Under the pieces are notes generated by a model. That model was given only the letters and a program-made list of their open reading frames with translations. It was not told the DNA's origin and ran no database searches. This document shows, in pieces, positions 4,826 through 42,868 of a stretch of DNA of 64,000 nt. Source of the stretch: a virus (taxonomy: Duplodnaviria; Heunggongvirae; Uroviricota; Caudoviricetes). The translations under genes and the position numbers were made by a program. The stretch lies in the IMG/VR virus record IMGVR_UViG_2609459792_000007. One strand, written 5' to 3'. Each line of letters begins with the position of its first letter. Positions within the stretch are counted from its first letter, which is position 1.

Positions 4826-5200
4826 ATGGGACTTGATATCTATATCGAGACGCAGCCTAAAAACGATCTGAATAACGAGGCATCCAGAAAGCAGGTTGCT
4901 TACTTCCGTAAGTTCAATGCGCTCGTTGGGTGGATGGAGCGCAACGTAGGTGAAGTCGAAAATTGTGAGCTTTTAGAATTAACGATGAATGACATTTGTT
5001 TTCTGAAGGCTCATTTGATGCACATAAACGAAAGTAATTGCGAAGAGTACTTGCCTACCCGGGAAGGTTTTTTCTTCGGCAGTCAGGAGTACGATGAAGG
5101 TTACTGGCATGATGTGGGGCAGTTGAAAGAGCTTGTGGAAGATCTGATTAAGAACCACGACTTTCACAATAACAGACTGACCTTCTGCGCCTGGTGGTAA
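4826..5200 (+). CDS. hypothetical protein
   Basis: ATG 4826 with RBS aaggaaac; ORF track start at 4784. Confidence 0.6.
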   Translation: MGLDIYIETQPKNDLNNEASRKQVAYFRKFNALVGWMERNVGEVENCELLELTMNDICFLKAHLMHINESNCEEYLPTREGFFFGSQEYDEGYWHDVGQLKELVEDLIKNHDFHNNRLTFCAWW

Positions 5201-5202
5201 AT

Positions 5203-5346
5203 ATGGGCGATTTCAAGAAACGCCTGAAGGAAAGAGCCGAGATGGTCAGAAAGCGAAACGCCTCTTCTGTCATCAGATACGCAAGGCAGTTTAGTCGCAA
5301 CAACAAATCAGTTGAGGAAAAGATCCTTAGCGTAATCGGGCGATAA
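5203..5346 (+). CDS. possible small basic protein (47 aa), below ORF-track size cutoff
   Basis: ATG 3 nt after the upstream stop; K/R-rich translation MGDFKKRLKERAEMVRKRNA...; ends just before terminator. Confidence 0.3.
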   Translation: MGDFKKRLKERAEMVRKRNASSVIRYARQFSRNNKSVEEKILSVIGR

Positions 5347-5349
5347 TTA

Positions 5350-5377
5350 TTAAGGCCACCAGCATTGGTGGCCTTAA
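5350..5377 (+). terminator. hairpin terminator, copy 1 of a twin element
   Basis: ttaaggccacca-gcat-tggtggccttaa. Confidence 0.6.
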
Positions 5378-5501
5378 ATGACTTTTAATAACCGAAGGTT
5401 AGTTTGAAACCTGGCTATCAACTTCCAGAACCTTTCTTGTGTATTCAGCCTGTATTAACTTCTTTTATGCCTTATCTACACTGCGATAATTACACCAACA
5501 A

Positions 5502-5518
5502 GAAAACAACATGTTTAC
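5502..5518. promoter_or_regulatory. operator variant GAAAACAACATGTTTAC (family A)
   Basis: Preceded by GATAAT (5485-5490) plus tacaccaac spacer as at 3345 and 5970. Confidence 0.5.
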
Positions 5519-5535
5519 GCAGTGAGGATATGCTC

Positions 5536-5817
5536 ATGACTGATTTCACCATTACCCCTAAAGCACAAAATGTATTCCTTGAATCATGGCTGGACTTGCC
5601 GGAAACAGAACAGCAAGAAATGGATCATGTGGATTATGACGAGCAGGTAAGCACGCGATTCTTCCACTTTGAGGGCTGCGTTTACGACATTGCCGACTTC
5701 ATGCGAGATGACCGCTTCCCTGAATGGCACGCCAGTTATCCACTAAACGCCTTTGCCATGCTGATGATCCGTGTGGATGATTCAGGGGATACCATCGACA
5801 TCGGTCTGCTCCACTAA
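5536..5817 (+). CDS. hypothetical small acidic protein
   Basis: ATG 5536 with RBS gagga 7 nt upstream; D/E-rich. Confidence 0.6.
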   Translation: MTDFTITPKAQNVFLESWLDLPETEQQEMDHVDYDEQVSTRFFHFEGCVYDIADFMRDDRFPEWHASYPLNAFAMLMIRVDDSGDTIDIGLLH

Positions 5818-32722: not shown

Positions 32723-35700
32723 TTGGACATGGAACAGTTCAAGAAGAAAAAATTACCGCTTCTTATTGCCGGTGCTGGTGGCAAGAAAAGTAAAAGCTCC
32801 AGCCGTACCCCGGTTGAAGCTGATGATACTGTCAATTCTCGTGCTATGGCAGCCATCCTCGACCTTCTTGGCGAGGGGGTTATCGGTGGCCTGGTAAATG
32901 GCGCAAAGTCGATCTTCATCGACGATTTACCGATCTTGAATGAAGATGGCTCTTCCAACTTCAGCGGTATTACATGGGATTTTCGTGACGGCTCACAAGA
33001 CCAGACGCCAATGGCTGGTTTTGATTTTGTTGAAACGCCTAAGTCCGTAAATATTCAGCTTAAAAAAACACACGACGTTACGGTTTCAATCGATAACGAT
33101 GAAGCTGATCGCGTTCGTGTCATCATGAAATTCCCCTCTTTACGTAGCGTTGATAAAAGCTCTGGCGATACAAATGGCACTACGGTGAAGTACAAATTCC
33201 AGATCGCCAACGGAGACGCAACATTTTCTGATGTAGTGGCAGAAGGTGAGAAAAGCGTTGATATCACGCTAACGGCAAAGAAAACAGGCGTGTATTACCG
33301 TAGCTATGAGCTGAAACTACCTAAGCCTGGTCGTGCATACAAGGTTAGGGTGATTCGTCTTACAGATGATAACAGTAGCCAGTACCTCTACAACGACACA
33401 TGGGTTGATTCCATAGGTGAGATTGTCGACACGCCAATGAACTACCCTAACTCTGCTCTTGTTGGCTTGAAGGTCAATTCAGAGCAGTTTGGTAGCACAA
33501 TGCCTTCCCGTTCGTATTTGGTGCGCGGTATCAAAATCCGAGTACCGTCAAACTACAACGAATACACCAATACTTATGTCGGCGTATGGGACGGTACTTT
33601 TAAGCTGTTGTCTTCTTCAAACCCTGCGTGGATTCTCTACGATTTGCTTACCAATACTCGGTATGGTCTTGGGCAATTTGTGTCGGAATCCATGATTGAC
33701 CTCGGCCAGCTCTACCAGATTGGTCGATATTGTGACGAAGAGGTCGATGATGGCTTTGGGGGTAAAGAGAAACGCTTTGCAATCAATACGCAGATCACCA
33801 GTCGACAAGACGCATACCGATTAATTCAGGATATTGCCGGTGCATTCCGCGGCATGGTGTTTTGGGCTGGTGGCATGGTTAACATCATGCAGGATAGCCC
33901 ATCAGATCCGGTAATGATGTTTACCAACTCCAACGTCAAAGATGGACTGTTTACCTATAAAGGTTCTGCGCGTAAAGATCGCCCATCCGTTGCGCTCGTA
34001 ACCTACAACAACAAGGAGGACGGTTATAAGCAAAATATCGAGTACGTTGAAGATCAGGACGCAATGCGCCGTTATGGTGAGCGTAAAACAGAAGTCGTAG
34101 CATTTGGATGTACAAGCCGAGGCCAGGCTCACCGAGTTGGTTTGTGGCTTTTGTATACCGCCAGAATGGAGTCGGATGTAATTACATTTACTGCCGGCTT
34201 AGACGCCTCATTTCTGATGCCCGGTGAAACCGTTCTGATTCAGAACAAATATCGTGCAGGTAAACGTAACTCCGGTCGAATTGTGGAGTTTACCAAAAAC
34301 AGCATCACTCTCGATGCGCCTGTGTCGTTAGCTAAAAGCGGCAGCTTTATTCGGATATTGAATCAGGAAGGCAAAATCGTTGAACGTGATGTTCTTGAAA
34401 CTGGCGAAAACATAACAAAGGTTACGTTTTCAAAAGCTCTGTCGTCAGCGGAAACGCCTGTTTTGAACGGTGTCTGGACAATTACAGAACCAGATCTCGA
34501 ACCTATGCGCGTTCGCATCGTTAACATCGCGCAGGGGGAAACGCCGGGTAGCTTTGACATCACCGCTGTTGAGAACAATCCGTCTAAATATGAGGCAATC
34601 GACAATGGTGCAACGCTTATCCCGCAGAATACGACGGTATTGGACCCGACTTACTCTAAGCCATCTAATTTGCAAATCACTGAAGGGACTTATCTCTCAA
34701 GCCCGGGCAACCTGTCAGTAAAACTGACTGCAACATGGGAAGGAAAATCTCCAGAGTATTGGATCAGTTGGCGACGTTCTGATGAAAACAATGTATCGAA
34801 CTGGCAATCGGCGCGTGTAACCGAAGAGCAATACGAAATCGTTAATGTCGCGGAGAATGGACGCTACGACTTCCAACTGTATGCGGTTTCATTCAACGGT
34901 AAAAAAACAGAGATTATCAGTACCGTTTATCAGGTGTTGGGCACAATGACACCGCCGGATGCCCCAACGTCATTAACGGCCGTTGGAGACTATCGTAATG
35001 TGATACTGAATTGGGTTAATCCAGATTCGGTAGACCTTGATCACATTAATGTTTACGCATCCCAGACCAACAATCTGGATACGGCGAAACTGATCGCAGA
35101 GTCTGCAAGCACCACCTTTACACATGCTGGTCTTGGGGATAGCGAAACGTGGTATTACTGGGTTCGAGCATCGAACAAGCGAGGTATGTTAAGCCCTCCG
35201 AACTCAAACTTGGGTACAGAGGCGACAACTCGCGATGTACTGTCGTTCCTGGCTGGCAAAATTACATCTTCCGAGCTTGGTCAGGCTCTGCTTGAGGACA
35301 TCAACAGTAAAGCCTCTCAAGAAGCAGTTGACGAGTTAAATGAGCATATCAACCAGAGCGTCGAATCTTTGGAGGGGTCGGTAAACGACGTTAAGGAAGA
35401 TATAGCTGAATTAGATAAGCAGTTCAGCGATAACCTCGCGGGTTTTGAAATAAAATTCAACGAGCGTAGCGATGCTTTGGAGAACGCACAAACCGAGCTT
35501 AAAGGTGAGGTTTCGGCAACGATCGACAAGGTCAATGAAGCGTTTGAAAAAATTGATGCTACTGATGCTGCAATTGTTGAAATCGAAAACACCGTATCTG
35601 AACACGATAAAGCTCTCGCTAATACAGTCGAGGCAATAAAGGCTGCAAGAGACGAAGCGGCGGCTCTTATTGCTAAGGAAAGCGAGGCTCGTGTAGAAGG

Positions 35701-37453
35701 TGATGCCGCAAACGCTAAACAACTGGAAGTGTTGCAGTCGACGGTAGAGGAAAGTTCCGCAGCTGTTGAAGAAATGAAAAAGACGGTTGCAGAGGTCGAT
35801 CGTGCCAGTGCAGAACTGACTACGAACATTGAGGCGTTAGCCAAAACAAATATTGACCTGGCTCTTCGTCAAGATGAAGACCAGCACAAGCAGATGGTCA
35901 ATAACGCGAAGATCGCAACAACACAGAAAACCTTTGCTGATGATATGTCTGCAATGGCCACGAAGGTTGAGGAAATTCGCGTAGAAATTGGCGAAGACAT
36001 TAAGGCCAGTATTCTGGAAGAGTCCACCGCTCGTGCCGATGGCGATGAAGCGTTGGCAAAGCGTGTCACTCAGCTGCAATCTAAGTTTGAAGGAGATATC
36101 AGCGCGGCGATTAGTACAGAACAGGAGGCTCGTACATCTGCCGATGAAGCTTTGACGAAACAAATAACTCAGCTTGAGTCGAAAGTAAGCAACGATATTG
36201 TCGCAGCCATTAAGGAAGAGCAAGAAGCCCGAGCAACGGAAGATTCGGCTCTGGCAAGCCAGATCACCCAACTTCAGGCAAAAGTTGATGATGATATTTC
36301 TGCTGCAATACGCAGTGAGCAGGAGGCGCGTGCGAGCGGAGACTCTGCGTTAGCTAAACAAATAAACCAGCTTCAAGCAAAGGTTGACGGTGATATATCC
36401 GCCGCCATCACTCAGGAGCAGGAGGCCAGAGCAAGTGCTGACGAGGCGCTCTCACGAGAAATTAACAGCCTGCGGGCGCAGACCGGAACTGACATTGCCG
36501 CAGCCGTTGCTGTAGAGACAAAGGCAAGGACTGACGCCGATAGTGCATTGTCCAGCCAGATTACATCTCTTACAGCAAAAGCTAATGATCTCGAGGCGTC
36601 TCTTGCCAAAGAAACAACGGCTCGTGCAGATGGCGATACCGCTTTAACAAAAGAGGTTTCAAGTTTAAAAGCACAGACTGCGAAAGATATTAGTGCGGCC
36701 GTTGCAGTGGAAACGCAGGCTCGAACTGATGCTGACTCGGCGCTATCGTCTCAGATCACCAAGCTGACCTCTCAATACAAAGAGGATATTAAAGCGGCTG
36801 TAGCAACCGAAACGAAAACGCGTACAGAGCAAGATGCGGCACTGGCGACTCAAATCACAAACTTAGAGTCTCAAACAGCAGCCAACATTTCTGCGGCGGT
36901 CACAACTGAAACGACAGCGAGAACGCAGGCAGATAATGCACTAAGTGGGCGAATCGATACTCTGAAAGCAGAGGTGGATGGAAATACCGCGACAATTCAA
37001 CAGCAGGCAACAGCCATTGCTGATACCAACAAAAAAGTCTCAACCGCGTGGACGTTGAAAATGGAGACTTCAACGAGCGGAGGGCAGAAGTATGTTGCCG
37101 GTATTGCGCTTGGTATCGACACCACCGGTCTTTCTCAGTTTTTGGTGCAGGCGGACAGATTTGGTTTGGTCAACTCTGTTAACGGGAAGATCACCACGCC
37201 ATTTGTTATCGAAAACAGTATCGCCTATATGAATGGTGCGTATATCAAGGATGGCACAATCACCAATGCAAAAGTAGGCGATCTGCAATCTACCAATTTT
37301 GTTAGCGGTAGATCTGGATGGCGGTTCGGCAAAAATGGAACGCTTGAGATCAACGGTAATAGCGGCGGCAATGGGCGACTGGTCATAAATGGTCAGCGGA
37401 TTGACGTTTATGACGATAACAACGTCCTACGAGTAAGAATTGGCCTTCTGTGA
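32723..37453 (+). CDS. tail tip / host specificity protein (lambda J-like) with internal tandem repeats
   Basis: 1576-aa ORF after the M/L/K/I-like series; central block of about ten 33-aa repeats. Confidence 0.8.
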   Translation: MDMEQFKKKKLPLLIAGAGGKKSKSSSRTPVEADDTVNSRAMAAILDLLGEGVIGGLVNGAKSIFIDDLPILNEDGSSNFSGITWDFRDGSQDQTPMAGFDFVETPKSVNIQLKKTHDVTVSIDNDEADRVRVIMKFPSLRSVDKSSGDTNGTTVKYKFQIANGDATFSDVVAEGEKSVDITLTAKKTGVYYRSYELKLPKPGRAYKVRVIRLTDDNSSQYLYNDTWVDSIGEIVDTPMNYPNSALVGLKVNSEQFGSTMPSRSYLVRGIKIRVPSNYNEYTNTYVGVWDGTFKLLSSSNPAWILYDLLTNTRYGLGQFVSESMIDLGQLYQIGRYCDEEVDDGFGGKEKRFAINTQITSRQDAYRLIQDIAGAFRGMVFWAGGMVNIMQDSPSDPVMMFTNSNVKDGLFTYKGSARKDRPSVALVTYNNKEDGYKQNIEYVEDQDAMRRYGERKTEVVAFGCTSRGQAHRVGLWLLYTARMESDVITFTAGLDASFLMPGETVLIQNKYRAGKRNSGRIVEFTKNSITLDAPVSLAKSGSFIRILNQEGKIVERDVLETGENITKVTFSKALSSAETPVLNGVWTITEPDLEPMRVRIVNIAQGETPGSFDITAVENNPSKYEAIDNGATLIPQNTTVLDPTYSKPSNLQITEGTYLSSPGNLSVKLTATWEGKSPEYWISWRRSDENNVSNWQSARVTEEQYEIVNVAENGRYDFQLYAVSFNGKKTEIISTVYQVLGTMTPPDAPTSLTAVGDYRNVILNWVNPDSVDLDHINVYASQTNNLDTAKLIAESASTTFTHAGLGDSETWYYWVRASNKRGMLSPPNSNLGTEATTRDVLSFLAGKITSSELGQALLEDINSKASQEAVDELNEHINQSVESLEGSVNDVKEDIAELDKQFSDNLAGFEIKFNERSDALENAQTELKGEVSATIDKVNEAFEKIDATDAAIVEIENTVSEHDKALANTVEAIKAARDEAAALIAKESEARVEGDAANAKQLEVLQSTVEESSAAVEEMKKTVAEVDRASAELTTNIEALAKTNIDLALRQDEDQHKQMVNNAKIATTQKTFADDMSAMATKVEEIRVEIGEDIKASILEESTARADGDEALAKRVTQLQSKFEGDISAAISTEQEARTSADEALTKQITQLESKVSNDIVAAIKEEQEARATEDSALASQITQLQAKVDDDISAAIRSEQEARASGDSALAKQINQLQAKVDGDISAAITQEQEARASADEALSREINSLRAQTGTDIAAAVAVETKARTDADSALSSQITSLTAKANDLEASLAKETTARADGDTALTKEVSSLKAQTAKDISAAVAVETQARTDADSALSSQITKLTSQYKEDIKAAVATETKTRTEQDAALATQITNLESQTAANISAAVTTETTARTQADNALSGRIDTLKAEVDGNTATIQQQATAIADTNKKVSTAWTLKMETSTSGGQKYVAGIALGIDTTGLSQFLVQADRFGLVNSVNGKITTPFVIENSIAYMNGAYIKDGTITNAKVGDLQSTNFVSGRSGWRFGKNGTLEINGNSGGNGRLVINGQRIDVYDDNNVLRVRIGLL
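35990..36980 (+). repeat. about ten tandem 99-bp (33-codon) repeats inside the J-like gene
   Basis: Repeating EQEARxxADxALxxQITxLxxKVxxDISAAI units. Confidence 0.8.
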
Positions 37454-37482: not shown

Positions 37483-37525
37483 AATAAGTAGGTACTTACT
37501 TAATGGTGGGCAAGGATAGCCCACC
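37483..37525. promoter_or_regulatory. family B motif plus GGTGGGC hairpin upstream of fibre gene
   Basis: aaataagtaggtacttactta then ggtgggc-aaggata-gcccacc, then RBS aaggag. Confidence 0.5.
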
Positions 37526-37546
37526 AAATCAAGGAGCATATTCAAC

Positions 37547-40500
37547 ATGTGGTACAGGGAAGGTACTATCACATTTACACAGGGTAGTAATACTCTGGTT
37601 GGGGTTGGGACAGCCTGGAACGTAACAGCTAATGGTGTGTTGCCGGGGATGATCGTCATTGGCCCCGACAATAAGCTGTATGAGATCAAGCGCGTAACAA
37701 GCGATACGAACATTGTTCTCTCAGAACCTTATACCGGTGAAACTCAGTCTGAAGTTCCGTGCCGAATCATTACTACCTATGAAGGCGACTTAACACAGTT
37801 TAGCGCGCGCTTTACCGCGCTAATGTCGCGTATGTCGGCTGATTCCAAGTCCATGCGTAGTTGGTTGACTGCTCTGGATGAGGTGACAATCGAGCGTGAA
37901 GACGGTACAGAAGTGACCGTTAAGCCGCTGATGCAGATCGTCAACGAGCACAACGAAAACGTTGAGTGGTATAAAAATAACACTGACGCGATTGATGCCG
38001 CTGGTGACAAAGCTCGTGAGGCGGCGGCCAGTGCTGCCGCAGCAGCAGAAAGCGCCAATACCGCTGGAGAAAAAGCATCTCAAGCGTCTCAAAGTGCATC
38101 CGCTGCGGCATCCTCACAAAGTGCCGCAAGTGCGAGTGCAACTGCTGCGAAAAAATCTGAAACGAACGCAGAATCAGCATATCTATCGGCAGCAGAATCA
38201 GCGTCTGTAGCGTCGACCAAAGCATCGGAGGCAGCAACATCTGCGTCCAGTGCCTCTGCATCTAAGGATGCAGCCAAAGCATCAGAGACTAACGCTTCAT
38301 CGAGTGCAAACGCGGCTGCATCATTTGCAACAGAAGCTGAAAATTCGTCTAAGGCAGCAAAAGCGTCAGAGACAAACGCAAAAGCATCTGAAACGGCAGC
38401 CGGGCAGAGTGCATCGTCTGCAAACAGTTCGAAATCTGCGGCAGAAGCGTCAGCAAGCGCAGCCTCAGCAAGTGCGGATAGTGCTTCATCAAGTGCAACT
38501 GCGGCAGGAAAATCTGCGGAAAGCGCGTCGTCATCAGCGACAACAGCTACCGCAAAAGCGACTGAGGCGACGAATCAGGCTACAGCTGCTAAAAATTCAG
38601 CATCGGCAGCAAAATCCTCTGAAACAAATGCAAAGGCTTCTGAAGATAATGCCGCTTCCTCTAAAGAGGCAGCTGCTGAATCTGCAAGTTCTGCGTCTGC
38701 ATCAGCCACCTCGGCATCTGCTTCAAAAGATGAGGCGACCAAGCAGGCATCAGCTGCGAAGGGGAGTGCTTCAACGGCATCCACGAAAGCAACAGAGGCG
38801 GCAGGTAGTGCGACGGCTGCATCTCAGAGCAAAGCTGCTGCTGAATCCGCTGCGACCCGTGCAGAAGCTGCCGCTGATCGTGCTGAAGAGATCGCCGGTG
38901 CAGTTGCGATGGAAGACGCAAGCCTTACCACCAAAGGTGTTGTGAAACTTAGCAGTGCTGTCGATAGCACCAGTGAATCGCTGGCCGCAACGCCAAAGGC
39001 AGTTAAAGCAGTCAATGACAATGCGAACAGCAGGGTGCCATCTAACCGAAAAATTAACGGGAAAGCACTGACTGCGGATATCACATTAACGCCGAAAGAT
39101 ATTGGTACTTTAAATTCAATAACGATGTCTTTCTCTGGCGGGGCCGGGTGGTTCAAACTGGCTACTGTTACAATGCCACAAGCGAGTTCCATCGTTTACA
39201 TCGCATTGATTGGTGGCGCTGGTTACAACGTCGGCTCCCCACATCAGGCAGGCATTTCAGAACTGGTTCTACGAGCAGGCAATGGAAACCCCAAAGGGAT
39301 TACAGGTGCTTTGTGGAAGCGTACAGCTGTCGGATTAACGAATTTCGCCTGGATCAACACATCCGGCGATACATATGATATTTACGTTGAAATTGGCAAT
39401 TATGCGACGAGTGTAAATATCCATTGGGATTGTACTGCAAATGCGTCAGTTTCTATTTATACATCGCCAACATATTCAGCGAGTAAGCCTTCCAGCGTTA
39501 CCGATGGTGTTGTTTATACGTTGTATAGCACACATCAGAAACCGACGCCGTTAGATATTGGAGCACTGCCAACAACCGGAGGAACAGTTTCAGGTCCGTT
39601 GTCTGTTACTGGTGGGATCACCGGAACATTAAATGGTAATGCAAGTACAGCAACGAAATTGCAGACGGCAAGATCTATCGGTGGAGTTGTTTTCGACGGT
39701 TCTGCAAATATTAACCTTCCAGGTGTAAACACTACGGGTAATCAGAACACCACTGGTAATGCTGCAACTGCTACAAAACTTCAGACGGCACGCACAATTG
39801 GCGGGGTAGCATTTGATGGCAGTGTCAATATCGACCTGCCGGGCGTGAATAAAGCAGGCAATCAGAGCACTACCGGCAATGCTGCAACCGCTACAAAACT
39901 ACAGACAGCGCGTACAATCAACGGTGTTAAGTTTGATGGTTCTGCGGACATAACGCTGACTCCTGCGAACCTTGACGTATACAGCAAAAGCGAAATAGAC
40001 AATAAAAAAGGGATGAGAAAATACACTTTTTCAGCGCCTGCAAATGCAGTAAGCGGTAAGTGGTATCCTATAGTCTTTCGCCGATCTGGAGGCAGTACCG
40101 ATGAATTAGCCTCACGAGTTGTGATAACTACTTATTCCTCAGCTGGCGGATACGCCATGAATAATTGTGAATTTAATGGGTTTGTTATGCCTGGCGGTTG
40201 GTCTGATCGCGGTTCATATGCGGCTGGTTTTTTCTCAATATATTCTACTGCTGAGCGAGCTATACACTCGATTATTTCAAGTGTGAAAGATGACGATTTG
40301 TGTAGTGTATTTTACGTTGAAGCCAGAGCATTCCCTATCAAGATATTTGCTGAGGAGGGCTTGAACGTAATTGTTCCAACGGCTGATTATGCAGTTGGTC
40401 AAACCACTTATAAGTGGGGGGCAACTGATCCTTTATCAGAAAGTACGAATGCACAGATAATTTTGGACTTTAAAAATGGACGAGGTTATTACTGTTCACA

Positions 40501-41704
40501 TCCATTTATTTCAAGTCTTTCAGGAAATGCTGCTACAGCAACGAAATTGCAGACTGCAAGAACTATCGGCGGCGTGGCCTTCGATGGATCTGCGAACATA
40601 AATTTGCCTGGTGTAAACACGGCAGGTAATCAGAATACAACGGGCAACGCGGCTACTGCTACGAAGTTGCAAACAGCGAGAAACATCAATGGTGTTAAGT
40701 TTGATGGCTCAGGCGATATCAACATTAATACATTGGTATCTCGTGGCCGAGTTACGGCGTTAAGCGGCTCTACTCAAGGCACTGCTGGCATTCAAATGTA
40801 CGAGGCGTACAACAATAGTTATCCGACCACGTATGGCAACGTATTGCACATGAAAGGTGCGAGTGCTGCTGGTGAGGGCGAGTTGCTTATTGGCTGGAGT
40901 GGTACGAGCGGTGCACATGCGCCGGTTTTCATTCGCTCCCGAAGAGATACCACTGATGCGGCATGGTCAGCGTGGGCGCAGGTATATACCGCTAAGGATT
41001 CAATCCCTGGTGTGAATACAACCGGTAATCAGAACACTACTGGTAATGCCGCAACCGCCACAAAATTGCAGACAGCAAGGAAAATTGCTGGTGTGGCGTT
41101 TGATGGCTCTGCCGATATTACTTTGACTGCGGCTAACCTTAATGCTTACACGAAAACAGAGGTAACAAACCTTCTAAGTTCCTATGCAAGCAGATCATCA
41201 CTGACAGGCTATAGTGGCAACCTGGATATTATTGCTGAAACACTGGTTGTCAAATCAGGCGGTAGTGGAGGGTTTGCTATATGGGATATTGGCACAACTA
41301 CTAGCGGTGCCAATATGTACATTGATCCAAACCCAGGTATCAATACAGTTTGGCGTTCAACATCTTCAAGGCGCTATAAAAAGGATATTGAAACATTACA
41401 AGATCGATATGCTGATGAACTTTTGTCATTAAGACCTGTTTGGTATCGTTCAATTTGTCGAGGTGACCGAAAGGATTGGGGGTATTACGGCCTTATTGCT
41501 GAAGAGGTTGGTGAGATTGCCCCGCAATATGTCCATTGGCGTGAACCAACAAATAATGATTCTCCAGAAGATATTTCCTCCAATGGTATGGTCGCTGAAG
41601 GAGTGATGTATGAACGTTTGGTTGTACCACTCATTCATCATATTCAGCAATTGACCAAAAGGGTTGAGGAGCTTGAAAAGAAGTTAAATTCACCTAAAGA
41701 ATAA
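37547..41704 (+). CDS. long tail fibre with C-terminal intramolecular chaperone (peptidase S74-like)
   Basis: 1385 aa; Ala/Ser-rich segment; repeats NTTGNQNTTGNAATATKLQTAR; C-terminus ...DWGYYGLIAEEVGEIAPQYV... typical of autoproteolytic chaperone domains. Confidence 0.8.
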   Translation: MWYREGTITFTQGSNTLVGVGTAWNVTANGVLPGMIVIGPDNKLYEIKRVTSDTNIVLSEPYTGETQSEVPCRIITTYEGDLTQFSARFTALMSRMSADSKSMRSWLTALDEVTIEREDGTEVTVKPLMQIVNEHNENVEWYKNNTDAIDAAGDKAREAAASAAAAAESANTAGEKASQASQSASAAASSQSAASASATAAKKSETNAESAYLSAAESASVASTKASEAATSASSASASKDAAKASETNASSSANAAASFATEAENSSKAAKASETNAKASETAAGQSASSANSSKSAAEASASAASASADSASSSATAAGKSAESASSSATTATAKATEATNQATAAKNSASAAKSSETNAKASEDNAASSKEAAAESASSASASATSASASKDEATKQASAAKGSASTASTKATEAAGSATAASQSKAAAESAATRAEAAADRAEEIAGAVAMEDASLTTKGVVKLSSAVDSTSESLAATPKAVKAVNDNANSRVPSNRKINGKALTADITLTPKDIGTLNSITMSFSGGAGWFKLATVTMPQASSIVYIALIGGAGYNVGSPHQAGISELVLRAGNGNPKGITGALWKRTAVGLTNFAWINTSGDTYDIYVEIGNYATSVNIHWDCTANASVSIYTSPTYSASKPSSVTDGVVYTLYSTHQKPTPLDIGALPTTGGTVSGPLSVTGGITGTLNGNASTATKLQTARSIGGVVFDGSANINLPGVNTTGNQNTTGNAATATKLQTARTIGGVAFDGSVNIDLPGVNKAGNQSTTGNAATATKLQTARTINGVKFDGSADITLTPANLDVYSKSEIDNKKGMRKYTFSAPANAVSGKWYPIVFRRSGGSTDELASRVVITTYSSAGGYAMNNCEFNGFVMPGGWSDRGSYAAGFFSIYSTAERAIHSIISSVKDDDLCSVFYVEARAFPIKIFAEEGLNVIVPTADYAVGQTTYKWGATDPLSESTNAQIILDFKNGRGYYCSHPFISSLSGNAATATKLQTARTIGGVAFDGSANINLPGVNTAGNQNTTGNAATATKLQTARNINGVKFDGSGDININTLVSRGRVTALSGSTQGTAGIQMYEAYNNSYPTTYGNVLHMKGASAAGEGELLIGWSGTSGAHAPVFIRSRRDTTDAAWSAWAQVYTAKDSIPGVNTTGNQNTTGNAATATKLQTARKIAGVAFDGSADITLTAANLNAYTKTEVTNLLSSYASRSSLTGYSGNLDIIAETLVVKSGGSGGFAIWDIGTTTSGANMYIDPNPGINTVWRSTSSRRYKKDIETLQDRYADELLSLRPVWYRSICRGDRKDWGYYGLIAEEVGEIAPQYVHWREPTNNDSPEDISSNGMVAEGVMYERLVVPLIHHIQQLTKRVEELEKKLNSPKE

Positions 41705-41764: not shown

Positions 41765-42019
41765 ATGAGCTATGGTGCACAGGTTTGGTCGCCATCAAGA
41801 CAGGAGATGGTCGATGCGTTGGCCCCTGTTTATTACCTCGATTATTTTACTCCCTCTGGTTCTGGAAGTAGAACATATGAGGTTGAGGCGGGATTGGGAA
41901 TCGACTATTACATAATGGACGTAACCAATGGGAAATACACAAGTCTTACGGTTTCTGGAAATACCATTTCATGGTCTGGAGCTAGTGGCAATTTAAACAT
42001 ATTGGTTTTTCAAAAATAA
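41765..42019 (+). CDS. hypothetical protein (84 aa)
   Basis: AT-rich ORF after fibre gene; RBS aaggatatatttATG. Confidence 0.5.
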   Translation: MSYGAQVWSPSRQEMVDALAPVYYLDYFTPSGSGSRTYEVEAGLGIDYYIMDVTNGKYTSLTVSGNTISWSGASGNLNILVFQK

Positions 42020-42627
42020 TGTACGGAAGCAAGATATATCGATCTGACGGGAAGGTCTGGATGTCTCCTTCTTTGTCTCCTATCGTTTTTCAGAGAAAGC
42101 AGGTTGTTTCTTTGTCTGGCGGGACAGAGTTTAACACCCAAATATCTCCAGATCGTTCACCGATGATTTTTGTTGCCTATTCGAAAGCTGTTTCATTAAT
42201 AGCCAACAGAATAGTGCGTAACAACCAGGTGATTTACAGTTTCGGAGGTCAGGGTAGCGACTCTAGTGCCACGATATACGTATTTTCGAAAGGTATAGCC
42301 AAAAAAGAAACTTGGGGCATGAGTTTTTTCAATGCGCGAGGAGAGGAGATCTATAATACGGCAAATATCCCACTTTCATTTACCTTTCTTAATAATACGG
42401 AGTGGAACAGTTCTGGAGGGCATGTTTTTGATTACCCGCCAGCGATAATCCCAACATATGCAAATGTGTTCGCGGTTCCAGTACCGGGCGGGGCCATGAC
42501 AATGGTTTATGGATATGCGGCATATGGAAATACTGTTAGTTCCATATTCGTAAACCAACTTAATGGCGGCCATAGTTTTAGCGTAAATGGCAGAGTACCG
42601 GTAATAAATAGAAATCTGTATAACTGA
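42019..42627 (+). CDS. hypothetical protein (202 aa)
   Basis: AT-rich ORF coupled to upstream gene. Confidence 0.5.
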   Translation: MYGSKIYRSDGKVWMSPSLSPIVFQRKQVVSLSGGTEFNTQISPDRSPMIFVAYSKAVSLIANRIVRNNQVIYSFGGQGSDSSATIYVFSKGIAKKETWGMSFFNARGEEIYNTANIPLSFTFLNNTEWNSSGGHVFDYPPAIIPTYANVFAVPVPGGAMTMVYGYAAYGNTVSSIFVNQLNGGHSFSVNGRVPVINRNLYN

Positions 42628-42637
42628 TGAGTAAACG

Positions 42638-42868
42638 ATGAAAAGATTATTTCTAACAATAGCTGTTGTTCTCTCTCTTACTGGCTGTCAGAAATTGCCG
42701 ACACCCATATGTTATGGTGAGGCTATCATTGGTGGACAGGAGACAGTCATACCTATATATGCTGTTAAAAAGGTTAACGGCTATACCTTATACAAAGCGG
42801 GTAGCATCTATAACTGGCGATGGGTTGGAGTAGGTGCTTTCTCATCAGTGCGTTGCAATGCTGAATGA
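42638..42868 (+). CDS. small lipoprotein
   Basis: MKRLFLTIAVVLSLTGC: signal peptide with lipobox LTGC. Confidence 0.6.
   Translation: MKRLFLTIAVVLSLTGCQKLPTPICYGEAIIGGQETVIPIYAVKKVNGYTLYKAGSIYNWRWVGVGAFSSVRCNAE

Follow-up and report, generated by a model that had tools for sequence, protein, structure and literature searches.

The C-terminal chaperone of the phage K1F endosialidase endoNF is the founding member of the MEROPS/Pfam family S74. Side tail fibres of the P1 S, Mu S and lambda Stf type use separate assembly chaperones (Tfa/U type), not S74. The Mu fibre and its separate assembly chaperone have been described, as have the T-shaped dual-receptor fibres of the BASEL collection, which combine an internal Gp12-like domain (RBD1) with a T5-like RBD2 that has an intramolecular chaperone (PMC11990801). 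The K1F-type mechanism has been summarised alongside that of T5 pb1, in which T1263|S1264 is the scissile bond and Ser1264 and Lys1269 are the catalytic residues (PMC4690869). LtfA of phage DT57C, a T5-like fibre, contains the pfam13884 domain (PMC4728585), and its helical N-terminal part forms a three-helix coiled coil (PMC10713586). The Salmonella phage SSU5 binds the LPS core (PMC12312913, PMC4138488).

Here we analysed a fibre gene located at positions 37547..41704 (+ strand) of a 64,000-nucleotide window of viral DNA (IMG/VR record IMGVR_UViG_2609459792_000007). Its 4158-nt frame starts with ATG and encodes 1385 amino acids plus the stop codon (ORF list), a size similar to that of T5 pb1 (1396 aa). 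A Shine-Dalgarno sequence AAGGAG, read from the sequence, lies 10 nt upstream of the ATG (37531..37536, +), and the spacer between the J and fibre genes contains an 8-bp GC-rich hairpin (37504..37526, +; −15.5 kcal/mol; z-score of −2.1 relative to shuffles) that is not followed by a T-run. The fibre matches phrog_3299 and tail-fibre PHROGs with E = 0 to 1e-300. A sequence-only reading had described a large fibre with an Ala/Ser-rich region, repeats and an S74-type chaperone domain, and one 1385-aa ORF does hold all three. The gene order of K/I/J, fibre, an 84-aa gene, a 202-aa gene, Cor and holin is the same in pAVS0968-B, SSU5 and Cyrano. The fibre shares the homologous N-terminal domain of SSU5-like side tail fibres and, like them, sits directly behind the J-like gene of a ~110-kb phage-plasmid. 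The gene product is very probably the homotrimeric side tail fibre of an E. coli phage-plasmid of the SSU5-like, pHCM2 type, and would work in the manner proposed below.

The fibre and its S74 domain are already known. An identical protein from E. coli (KDY90830.1 / WP_432704428.1, 109.6-kb contig) carries the GenBank name “chaperone of endosialidase family protein” under KDY90830.1, and thousands of homologues are found on ~110-kb plasmids or contigs. The observation is correct but ordinary, and none of the results reported here changes the known picture of S74 chaperones and tail-fibre mosaicism. Phage-plasmids of the SSU5 type are frequent in E. coli, Shigella, Enterobacter and Yersinia, and resistance genes are present on some of them (PMC9600943). 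In practical terms the gain is small; because the host range of these elements is poorly understood, the domain map of the fibre and its predicted maturation site T1272|S1273 are useful for planning host-range and engineering experiments.

In relatives of this element, insertion sequences are present in the tail module: IS66 within the J gene of pAVS0968-B, and IS2 in other plasmids. Some SSU5-like elements, including one of E. coli, are not inducible (PMC9600943), so the copy in the window may never be expressed. A gene in decay, left on a defective plasmid and no longer giving a working fibre, is nevertheless an unlikely reading: the 4158-nt frame and the neighbouring genes, including the 1576-aa J gene, are uninterrupted in the ORF list, every module is full-length relative to its counterparts, and the substitution pattern is that of purifying selection in the fibre frame.

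The working fibre would end in a self-cleaving chaperone (aa 1273–1385; 41363..41701, +), with S1273 as the predicted nucleophile and K1278 as the predicted base. The sequence-only reading had assigned an S74-type chaperone to the C-terminal 120 residues and proposed a domain search of this part. In that search, PF13884 matched aa 1273–1329, equivalent to profile positions 1–57 of 58, and scored 27.2 bits in the whole protein and 30.8 bits in the C-terminal piece, above the gathering cutoff of 22. A profile of 21 diverse C-termini, moreover, matched the last ~120 residues of LtfA (residues 953–1074 of 1076; PDB sequence 8hqz_d) with E = 5.5e-8. In this alignment T1272|S1273 coincides with the scissile Thr|Ser, and the residue five positions after S1273, K1278, falls on the catalytic Lys, so that Ser1273 and Lys1278 correspond to Ser1264 and Lys1269 of T5 pb1. 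The alignment runs on through a predicted terminal helix (aa 1355–1380; AlphaFold2 block-mean pLDDT 66–94), and the chaperone ends at the stop codon. Among the 21 sequences, which include relatives down to 30% identity, S1273, S1274, Y1277 and K1278 are invariant and the motif R-S-T-S-S-x-R-Y-K is nearly so; upstream of the putative scissile bond, T1250 and N1256 are invariant and R1270 is nearly invariant. T5 pb1 has its folding-sensor residues Arg1250 and Asp1239 upstream of the bond, but this part of the fibre gave no reliable alignment to T5. The median identity is 50% in the chaperone and 14% in the variable stretch aa 1200–1249. The Pfam match, the profile match and the invariant residues are three independent lines of support for an S74-type intramolecular chaperone. 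They uphold the domain assignment, with its length corrected to 113 residues, and they suggest that the fibre is cleaved at T1272|S1273 after trimerisation.

The PF13884 score is modest (27–31 bits). The AlphaFold2 monomer model of aa 1200–1385 was poor (pLDDT 56, pTM 0.37), and a Foldseek search of the PDB with this model returned no match with E ≤ 0.001, which leaves the assignment with no fold-level confirmation from these two programs; solved chaperone domains of this kind include those of K1F (3GW6) and T5 (4UW8). The modest score and the failed fold comparison would be compatible with a degenerate, non-cleaving chaperone that stays attached and caps the fibre tip permanently. We regard such a cap as very unlikely, as the Ser-Lys dyad and the surrounding motif are conserved across the 21 relatives and align to the T5-type scissile site, and a conserved chaperone next to a variable tip is what would be expected of a working folding module.

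In the cleavage model, which draws on the homologous T5 pb1 and K1F endosialidase, the C-terminal 113 residues would act, from the C-terminus, as the nucleus on which the distal tip (aa 1206–1272; 41162..41362, +) trimerises and folds. Upon correct formation of the trimer, Ser1273, activated by Lys1278, would cut the T1272|S1273 bond at which the tip ends, and the departing chaperone would leave a mature 1272-aa fibre with its tip exposed. No separate assembly or adhesin gene is present downstream of the fibre, in keeping with a self-chaperoned protein. SSU5, however, has a Gp38-like adhesin gene alongside its S74 fibre, so the lack of an adhesin gene does not by itself identify the receptor-binding part.

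The likeness to T5 pb1 and LtfA comprises the C-terminal S74 chaperone with its scissile Thr|Ser and the Lys five residues on, and a predicted Ala-rich three-helix coiled coil close to the N-terminus. The N-terminal anchor, in contrast, is unrelated to that of T5, and the ~290-aa bullet-shaped receptor-binding domain of the T5 fibre is missing, with only ~67 aa separating the predicted cleavage site from the last repeat. The T5 fibre in turn lacks the 40-aa repeats and cassette domains found in the middle of this protein, which, unlike T5, belongs to a temperate phage-plasmid. With endoNF of K1F the fibre has the Pfam family S74 and the Ser-Lys motif in common, and in both the domain lies at the C-terminus and ends in a helix (predicted here), whereas no sialidase or other enzymatic domain was detected in it; the PDB search gave no direct sequence match to K1F chains.

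The middle of the fibre begins with a Phage_fiber_2 motif (PF03406; aa 459–499; 38921..39043, +; E = 1.2e-19; 70.1 bits, cutoff 22), a match seen only when this piece was scanned without the heptad region that precedes it. The motif aligns to residues 105–156 of protein S, the tail fibre protein of phage Mu (PDB 5yvq, E = 8.9e-8), and is shared with the P1 S, Mu S and lambda Stf-type fibres, as is a mosaic, recombining architecture. Past this motif, three globular domains would be strung between 40-aa GNAATATKLQTAR units. Domain D1 (aa 500–696; 39044..39634, +) is 94–100% identical in most homologues and has neither a Pfam nor a PDB sequence match. It is followed by repeat block 1 (aa 697–816; 39635..39994, +), which consists of three tandem GNA(A/S)TATKLQTAR units, by the cassette domain D2 (aa 817–992; 39995..40522, +) and by the two units of repeat block 2 (aa 993–1072; 40523..40762, +). 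Domain D3 (aa 1073–1165; 40763..41041, +), without a Pfam match, is conserved in most homologues and shows ~72% DNA identity to SSU5; the single repeat unit 6 (aa 1166–1205; 41042..41161, +) then leads to the distal tip. D2 is a beta-rich globular module whose fold found no confident match among solved structures, and it may serve as a spacer or bind a receptor laterally.

The six 40-aa units begin at aa 697, 737, 777, 993, 1033 and 1166; five open exactly with GNAATATKLQTAR and one with GNASTATKLQTAR. As the DNA copies are only 67–79% identical to one another, the units are maintained at the protein level and do not stem from recent duplication. It is the segment aa 459–499, and not these units, that the Pfam 'Phage tail fibre repeat' (PF03406) recognises; no Pfam-A model matches the GNAATATKLQTAR units even at E ≤ 10.

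Relative to the nearest plasmids, a stretch of the fibre that lies between the two repeat blocks (aa ~801–1036) has been replaced: identity is 97% up to aa 800 and 98.9% from aa 1037. The region aa 808–1050 is 96% identical at the DNA level to the lytic Nonagvirus HdSG1, and the borders of the cassette fall inside the repeat blocks. SSU5 and most sister plasmids carry a Gp34_trimer domain (PF21446; aa 907–1008 in the sister protein P0002), which has no match in this fibre, where another cassette takes its position. Across 120 homologues, the type of D2 and the type of C-terminus assort independently. The comparison shows that domains lying between the conserved repeat units are swapped as cassettes, for which these units would also serve as handles for homologous recombination. 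With borders that fall within conserved repeats and a near-identical module in a lytic Nonagvirus, the fibre offers a clear case of exchange of putative receptor-binding modules between temperate plasmid-phages and virulent phages. The BASEL T-shaped fibres are similar in their internal globular domain, in the horizontal exchange of modules and in a distal tip whose folding involves an intramolecular chaperone (predicted here), but the Gp12-like domain that they contain was not detected by Pfam in this fibre.

A bolder version of this arrangement sees the fibre as an adhesin built like 'beads on a string', in which the GNAATATKLQTAR units serve as structural joints as well as dedicated recombination handles, D2 is a second, lateral receptor site and the tiny tip that chaperone removal exposes binds a different ligand, which would give the fibre dual specificity. 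We consider this version doubtful. If it were true, the 40-aa units would let internal globular domains swap between temperate phage-plasmids and virulent phages.

At the other end of the protein, the N-terminal domain (aa 1–150; 37547..37996, +) shows 98–100% identity in almost every SSU5-like homologue of the comparison and matches no Pfam family. These family-specific ~150 residues presumably form the tail-attachment domain and would anchor the fibre at the tail tip beside the J-like protein. The similarity to the SSU5 fibre gene SSU5_021 (74–78% DNA identity) is limited to the gene's 5′ end, where it amounts to 78.3% over nt 1–515 and 73.7% over nt 1–740. The two fibres are homologous over their N-terminal ~250 aa, both end in S74, and both loci continue from J and the fibre to the 84-aa, ~200-aa and Cor genes. 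They differ in that SSU5 has the Gp34_trimer domain and a separate Gp38_N adhesin gene (SSU5_022), neither of which is found here, and in that the D2 cassette and the tip-plus-chaperone module of the present fibre are of other types.

Residues 151–450 (37997..38896, +) had been labelled low-complexity, a description that misses their strict periodicity: they form 43 uninterrupted heptads with the consensus x-A-x-x-S-A-T/S. Ala occupies one position in 43/43 heptads and Ser follows three residues later in 31 of the 43; the Ala lag-7 autocorrelation is 0.41, with a maximum of 0.19 among 5000 shuffles. Length variants among the homologues differ by exactly 105 aa, that is 15 heptads, and the array aligns weakly to the helical N-terminal part of LtfA. 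The 300-aa region is most likely a trimeric coiled-coil rod; judging from the periodicity and the solved LtfA helix bundle, its 43 heptads would form a rigid three-helix coiled coil ~44 nm long.

The Ala+Ser content of this region (60–70% per 50-aa block, compared with 3–34% in other blocks) might instead be that of a disordered low-complexity linker, and the long stop-free runs of the other frames (+2, 228 codons; −2, 161 codons) might hide a real overlapping gene, the more so as an antisense ORF at 38824..39192 matches phrog_24241 (E = 6.8e-13). This pair of assumptions is highly improbable. The heptad register is perfect across all 43 repeats, and the length variants keep to it; the stop-free runs are equalled by 13–79% of 2000 codon shuffles; and, in the fibre frame, substitutions relative to phage Cyrano number 42, 27 and 146 at the first, second and third codon positions. 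The shuffles and the substitutions bear out the view of the sequence-only reading that the overlapping ORFs are composition artefacts. That reading named antisense ORFs; spurious ORFs in fact occur on both strands over the Ala/Ser region, the longest (231 aa, 38250..38945) lying in another frame of the + strand. The other alternative-frame ORFs tested had no PHROG match. As for phrog_24241, the matching ORF sits opposite the conserved Phage_fiber_2 motif, not opposite the heptads, and the family has no known function, for which reasons it is most simply read as a family of miscalled antisense ORFs.

The fibre gene is a single ORF in the ORF list (37547–41704, + strand) with an ATG start and a product of 1385 amino acids, preceded by a Shine-Dalgarno-type AAGGAG (37531–37536) located 10 nucleotides before the ATG. 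At the DNA level, 1420 records from complete E. coli genomes match the gene, as do 556 plasmids, mainly non-mobilisable replicons of about 110 kb. One plasmid, CP056788.1, spans 99% of its length with 91% identity. Gene order, comprising tail assembly, a J-like tip protein, the fibre, and lysis and plasmid-partition genes, is common to the closest plasmid pAVS0968-B, phage Cyrano and Salmonella phage SSU5. Considering these matches and this gene order, we identify the product, on sequence grounds, as the side tail fibre of a phage-plasmid of the SSU5-like (pHCM2-type) group. An identical 1385-residue protein is already in public databases (KDY90830.1 / WP_432704428.1, from a 109,600-bp contig of E. 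coli 2-427-07_S1_C3) as a ‘chaperone of endosialidase family protein’ or ‘tail fiber domain-containing protein’, and is thus named for the S74 domain itself. Both the S74 type of chaperone and mosaicism in tail fibres are textbook matter; what is added here is a precise domain map, a predicted cleavage site, the reading of the ‘low-complexity’ part as a perfect rod of 43 heptads, and a clear-cut swap of a cassette with a virulent phage.

The C-terminal 120 residues had been attributed to an S74-type intramolecular chaperone. A domain search of the C-terminus bears out its presence, with Peptidase_S74 (PF13884) matching residues 1273–1329 at 27.2 bits in the whole protein and 30.8 bits in the C-terminal piece (cutoff, 22 bits), and corrects its length to 113 residues (1273–1385). 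An alignment of 21 C-termini, the most distant sharing 30% identity with the window protein, shows no variation at S1273, S1274, Y1277 or K1278 and very little at R1270, S1271 and T1272. The profile of these C-termini matches residues 953–1074 (of 1076) of LtfA, the fibre of the T5-like phage DT57C (E = 5.5e-8), for which an autocleavable pfam13884 domain has been predicted (PMC4728585), and places T1272|S1273 on a Thr|Ser and K1278 on a Lys of LtfA. In the T5 fibre pb1, the scissile bond is Thr1263-Ser1264, the serine is activated by Lys1269, the S1264A substitution blocks cleavage, and an Arg of the neighbouring chain ties cleavage to correct folding of the trimer (PMC4690869). By homology, we infer that the fibre is cleaved and predict the cut at T1272|S1273, which should follow trimerisation.

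Across the same alignment, the median identity to the window protein is 50% in the chaperone versus 14% in residues 1200–1249, most of which belong to the short distal tip (residues 1206–1272). This is the pattern that would be expected of a portable folding module on a variable binding tip. An AlphaFold2 monomer model of the C-terminal part was poor (pLDDT 56), with only the terminal helix (residues 1355–1380) being reasonably confident, and a Foldseek search with this model returned no match.

Residues 500–1205 consist of the globular domains D1 (500–696), D2 (817–992) and D3 (1073–1165), which alternate with blocks of a 40-residue repeat. The repeats noticed in the sequence-only reading are indeed present as six units, each opening with GNA(A/S)TATKLQTAR, at residues 697, 737, 777, 993, 1033 and 1166. 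No Pfam-A model matched them, even at E ≤ 10. Their DNA is only 67–79% identical, so what is conserved is their protein sequence, and recent duplication does not account for them. The unit is very widespread: a query with residues 1150–1385 retrieved 7186 cluster representatives (E ≤ 0.001), and the match of many top-scoring proteins comes mainly from several 40-residue units, with as many as 17 matched stretches in one protein.

Sliding-window identity resolves the fibre homologues into discrete modules. Relative to pAVS0968-B, DNA identity is 97% up to residue 800 and 98.9% from residue 1037, and the sequence between is unrelated; the stretch encoding residues 808–1050 is instead 96% identical in DNA to the lytic Nonagvirus HdSG1, and both borders of this interval lie inside repeat blocks. 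Sister proteins and SSU5 carry a Gp34_trimer domain as an alternative cassette. In the 120 best homologues, the presence of a D2 cassette of the window type is independent of that of a tip-plus-chaperone of the window type, and the combination of the two is a minority (4 of 120). In HdSG1 (MK373795.1), the segment matching D2 at 96% (5001–5728) spans the junction of the overlapping CDSs HdSG1_00041 and HdSG1_00042, which points to a fibre gene that is split, frameshifted or wrongly annotated in that record.

The N-terminal 150 residues are almost invariant across SSU5-like homologues by sliding-window identity and match no Pfam family; DNA similarity to SSU5 (74–78%) is kept mainly here and at the start of the following heptad region. 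We infer that they form the tail-attachment domain. The Ala/Ser-rich region is confirmed at residues 151–450 (37997–38896, + strand; 60–70% Ala+Ser). It is not merely of low complexity, as it consists of 43 heptads without a break, with Ala at one position in 43 of 43 and Ser three residues on in 31 of 43; the lag-7 autocorrelation of Ala is 0.41, whereas none of 5000 shuffles exceeded 0.19. This region aligns weakly to the helical N-terminal part of DT57C LtfA, a three-helix coiled coil by cryo-EM (PMC10713586), and would form a rod of about 44 nm at ~1.5 Å per residue. Rod lengths among 104 homologues fall into two main classes exactly 105 residues (15 heptads) apart, the shorter comprising 16 of the 104, including the homologue P0062. 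The length polymorphism is thus quantised, with the coiled-coil register preserved, and a loss of 15 heptads would cut the rod by about 16 nm. Next to the heptads, residues 459–499 match Phage_fiber_2 (PF03406, E = 1.2e-19) and the Mu S structure 5yvq; the PF03406 match was missed in the whole-protein scan, presumably because of composition filtering.

Both strands of the heptad region carry many overlapping ORFs (60–231 residues), whose earlier dismissal as composition artefacts stands. In 2000 shuffles of the order of the 300 codons, every alternative frame reached its observed stop-free length in 13–79% of cases. Substitutions relative to Cyrano in this region number 42, 27 and 146 at the first, second and third codon positions, respectively, of the fibre frame, a test that is not fully independent for the one antisense frame that has its third positions in common with the sense frame. 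The alternative-frame ORFs tested had no PHROG match except for 38824–39192 (− strand, 122 residues), which matches phrog_24241, a family of unknown function, at E = 6.8e-13. Since the conserved Phage_fiber_2 motif is encoded on the opposite strand at this match, the family was probably built from miscalled antisense ORFs. The observation of a large composite fibre is confirmed and its interpretation is supported at the level of sequence.

Same-locus relatives differ distally. In SSU5, the fibre likewise ends in S74 but a Gp38_N adhesin gene comes after it, whereas the Cyrano fibre ends in gp37_C without S74; downstream of the window fibre there is no gene for an adhesin or for assembly. The LPS core serves as receptor for the SSU5 fibre (PMC12312913, PMC4138488), which does not indicate the receptor of the window fibre because the distal modules differ. 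The fibre gene is followed by an 84-residue gene (41765–42019, + strand; phrog_557 ‘outer membrane protein’), a 202-residue gene (42019–42627, + strand; phrog_425 ‘membrane associated protein’) and a Cor superinfection-exclusion lipoprotein gene (42638–42868, + strand), a trio that is kept after the SSU5 fibre and adhesin and is absent from Cyrano. By eye, the first two products have no signal peptide and, accordingly, their PHROG names look doubtful.

Upstream, an ORF of 1576 residues (32723–37453, + strand) carries the J-type domains FNIII-A_GpJ, Phage-tail_3 and Phage_Tail_Tip. Between its stop codon and the fibre ribosome-binding site lies an 8-bp GC-rich hairpin (37504–37526, + strand; −15.5 kcal/mol, z = −2.1) without a T-run, which could act in RNA stability or processing. 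At about residues 1090–1420, the J-like protein contains some 9–10 tandem 33-residue repeats (DISAAIxxEQEARxxxDxALxxQIxxLxAKVxxDI), probably a long coiled-coil insertion ahead of the C-terminal Phage_Tail_Tip domain. In pAVS0968-B (NZ_CP124394.1, 4619–7907), the IS66-family element ISEc23 interrupts the J-like gene, which probably makes the tail module of this plasmid defective; the J gene of the window is intact.
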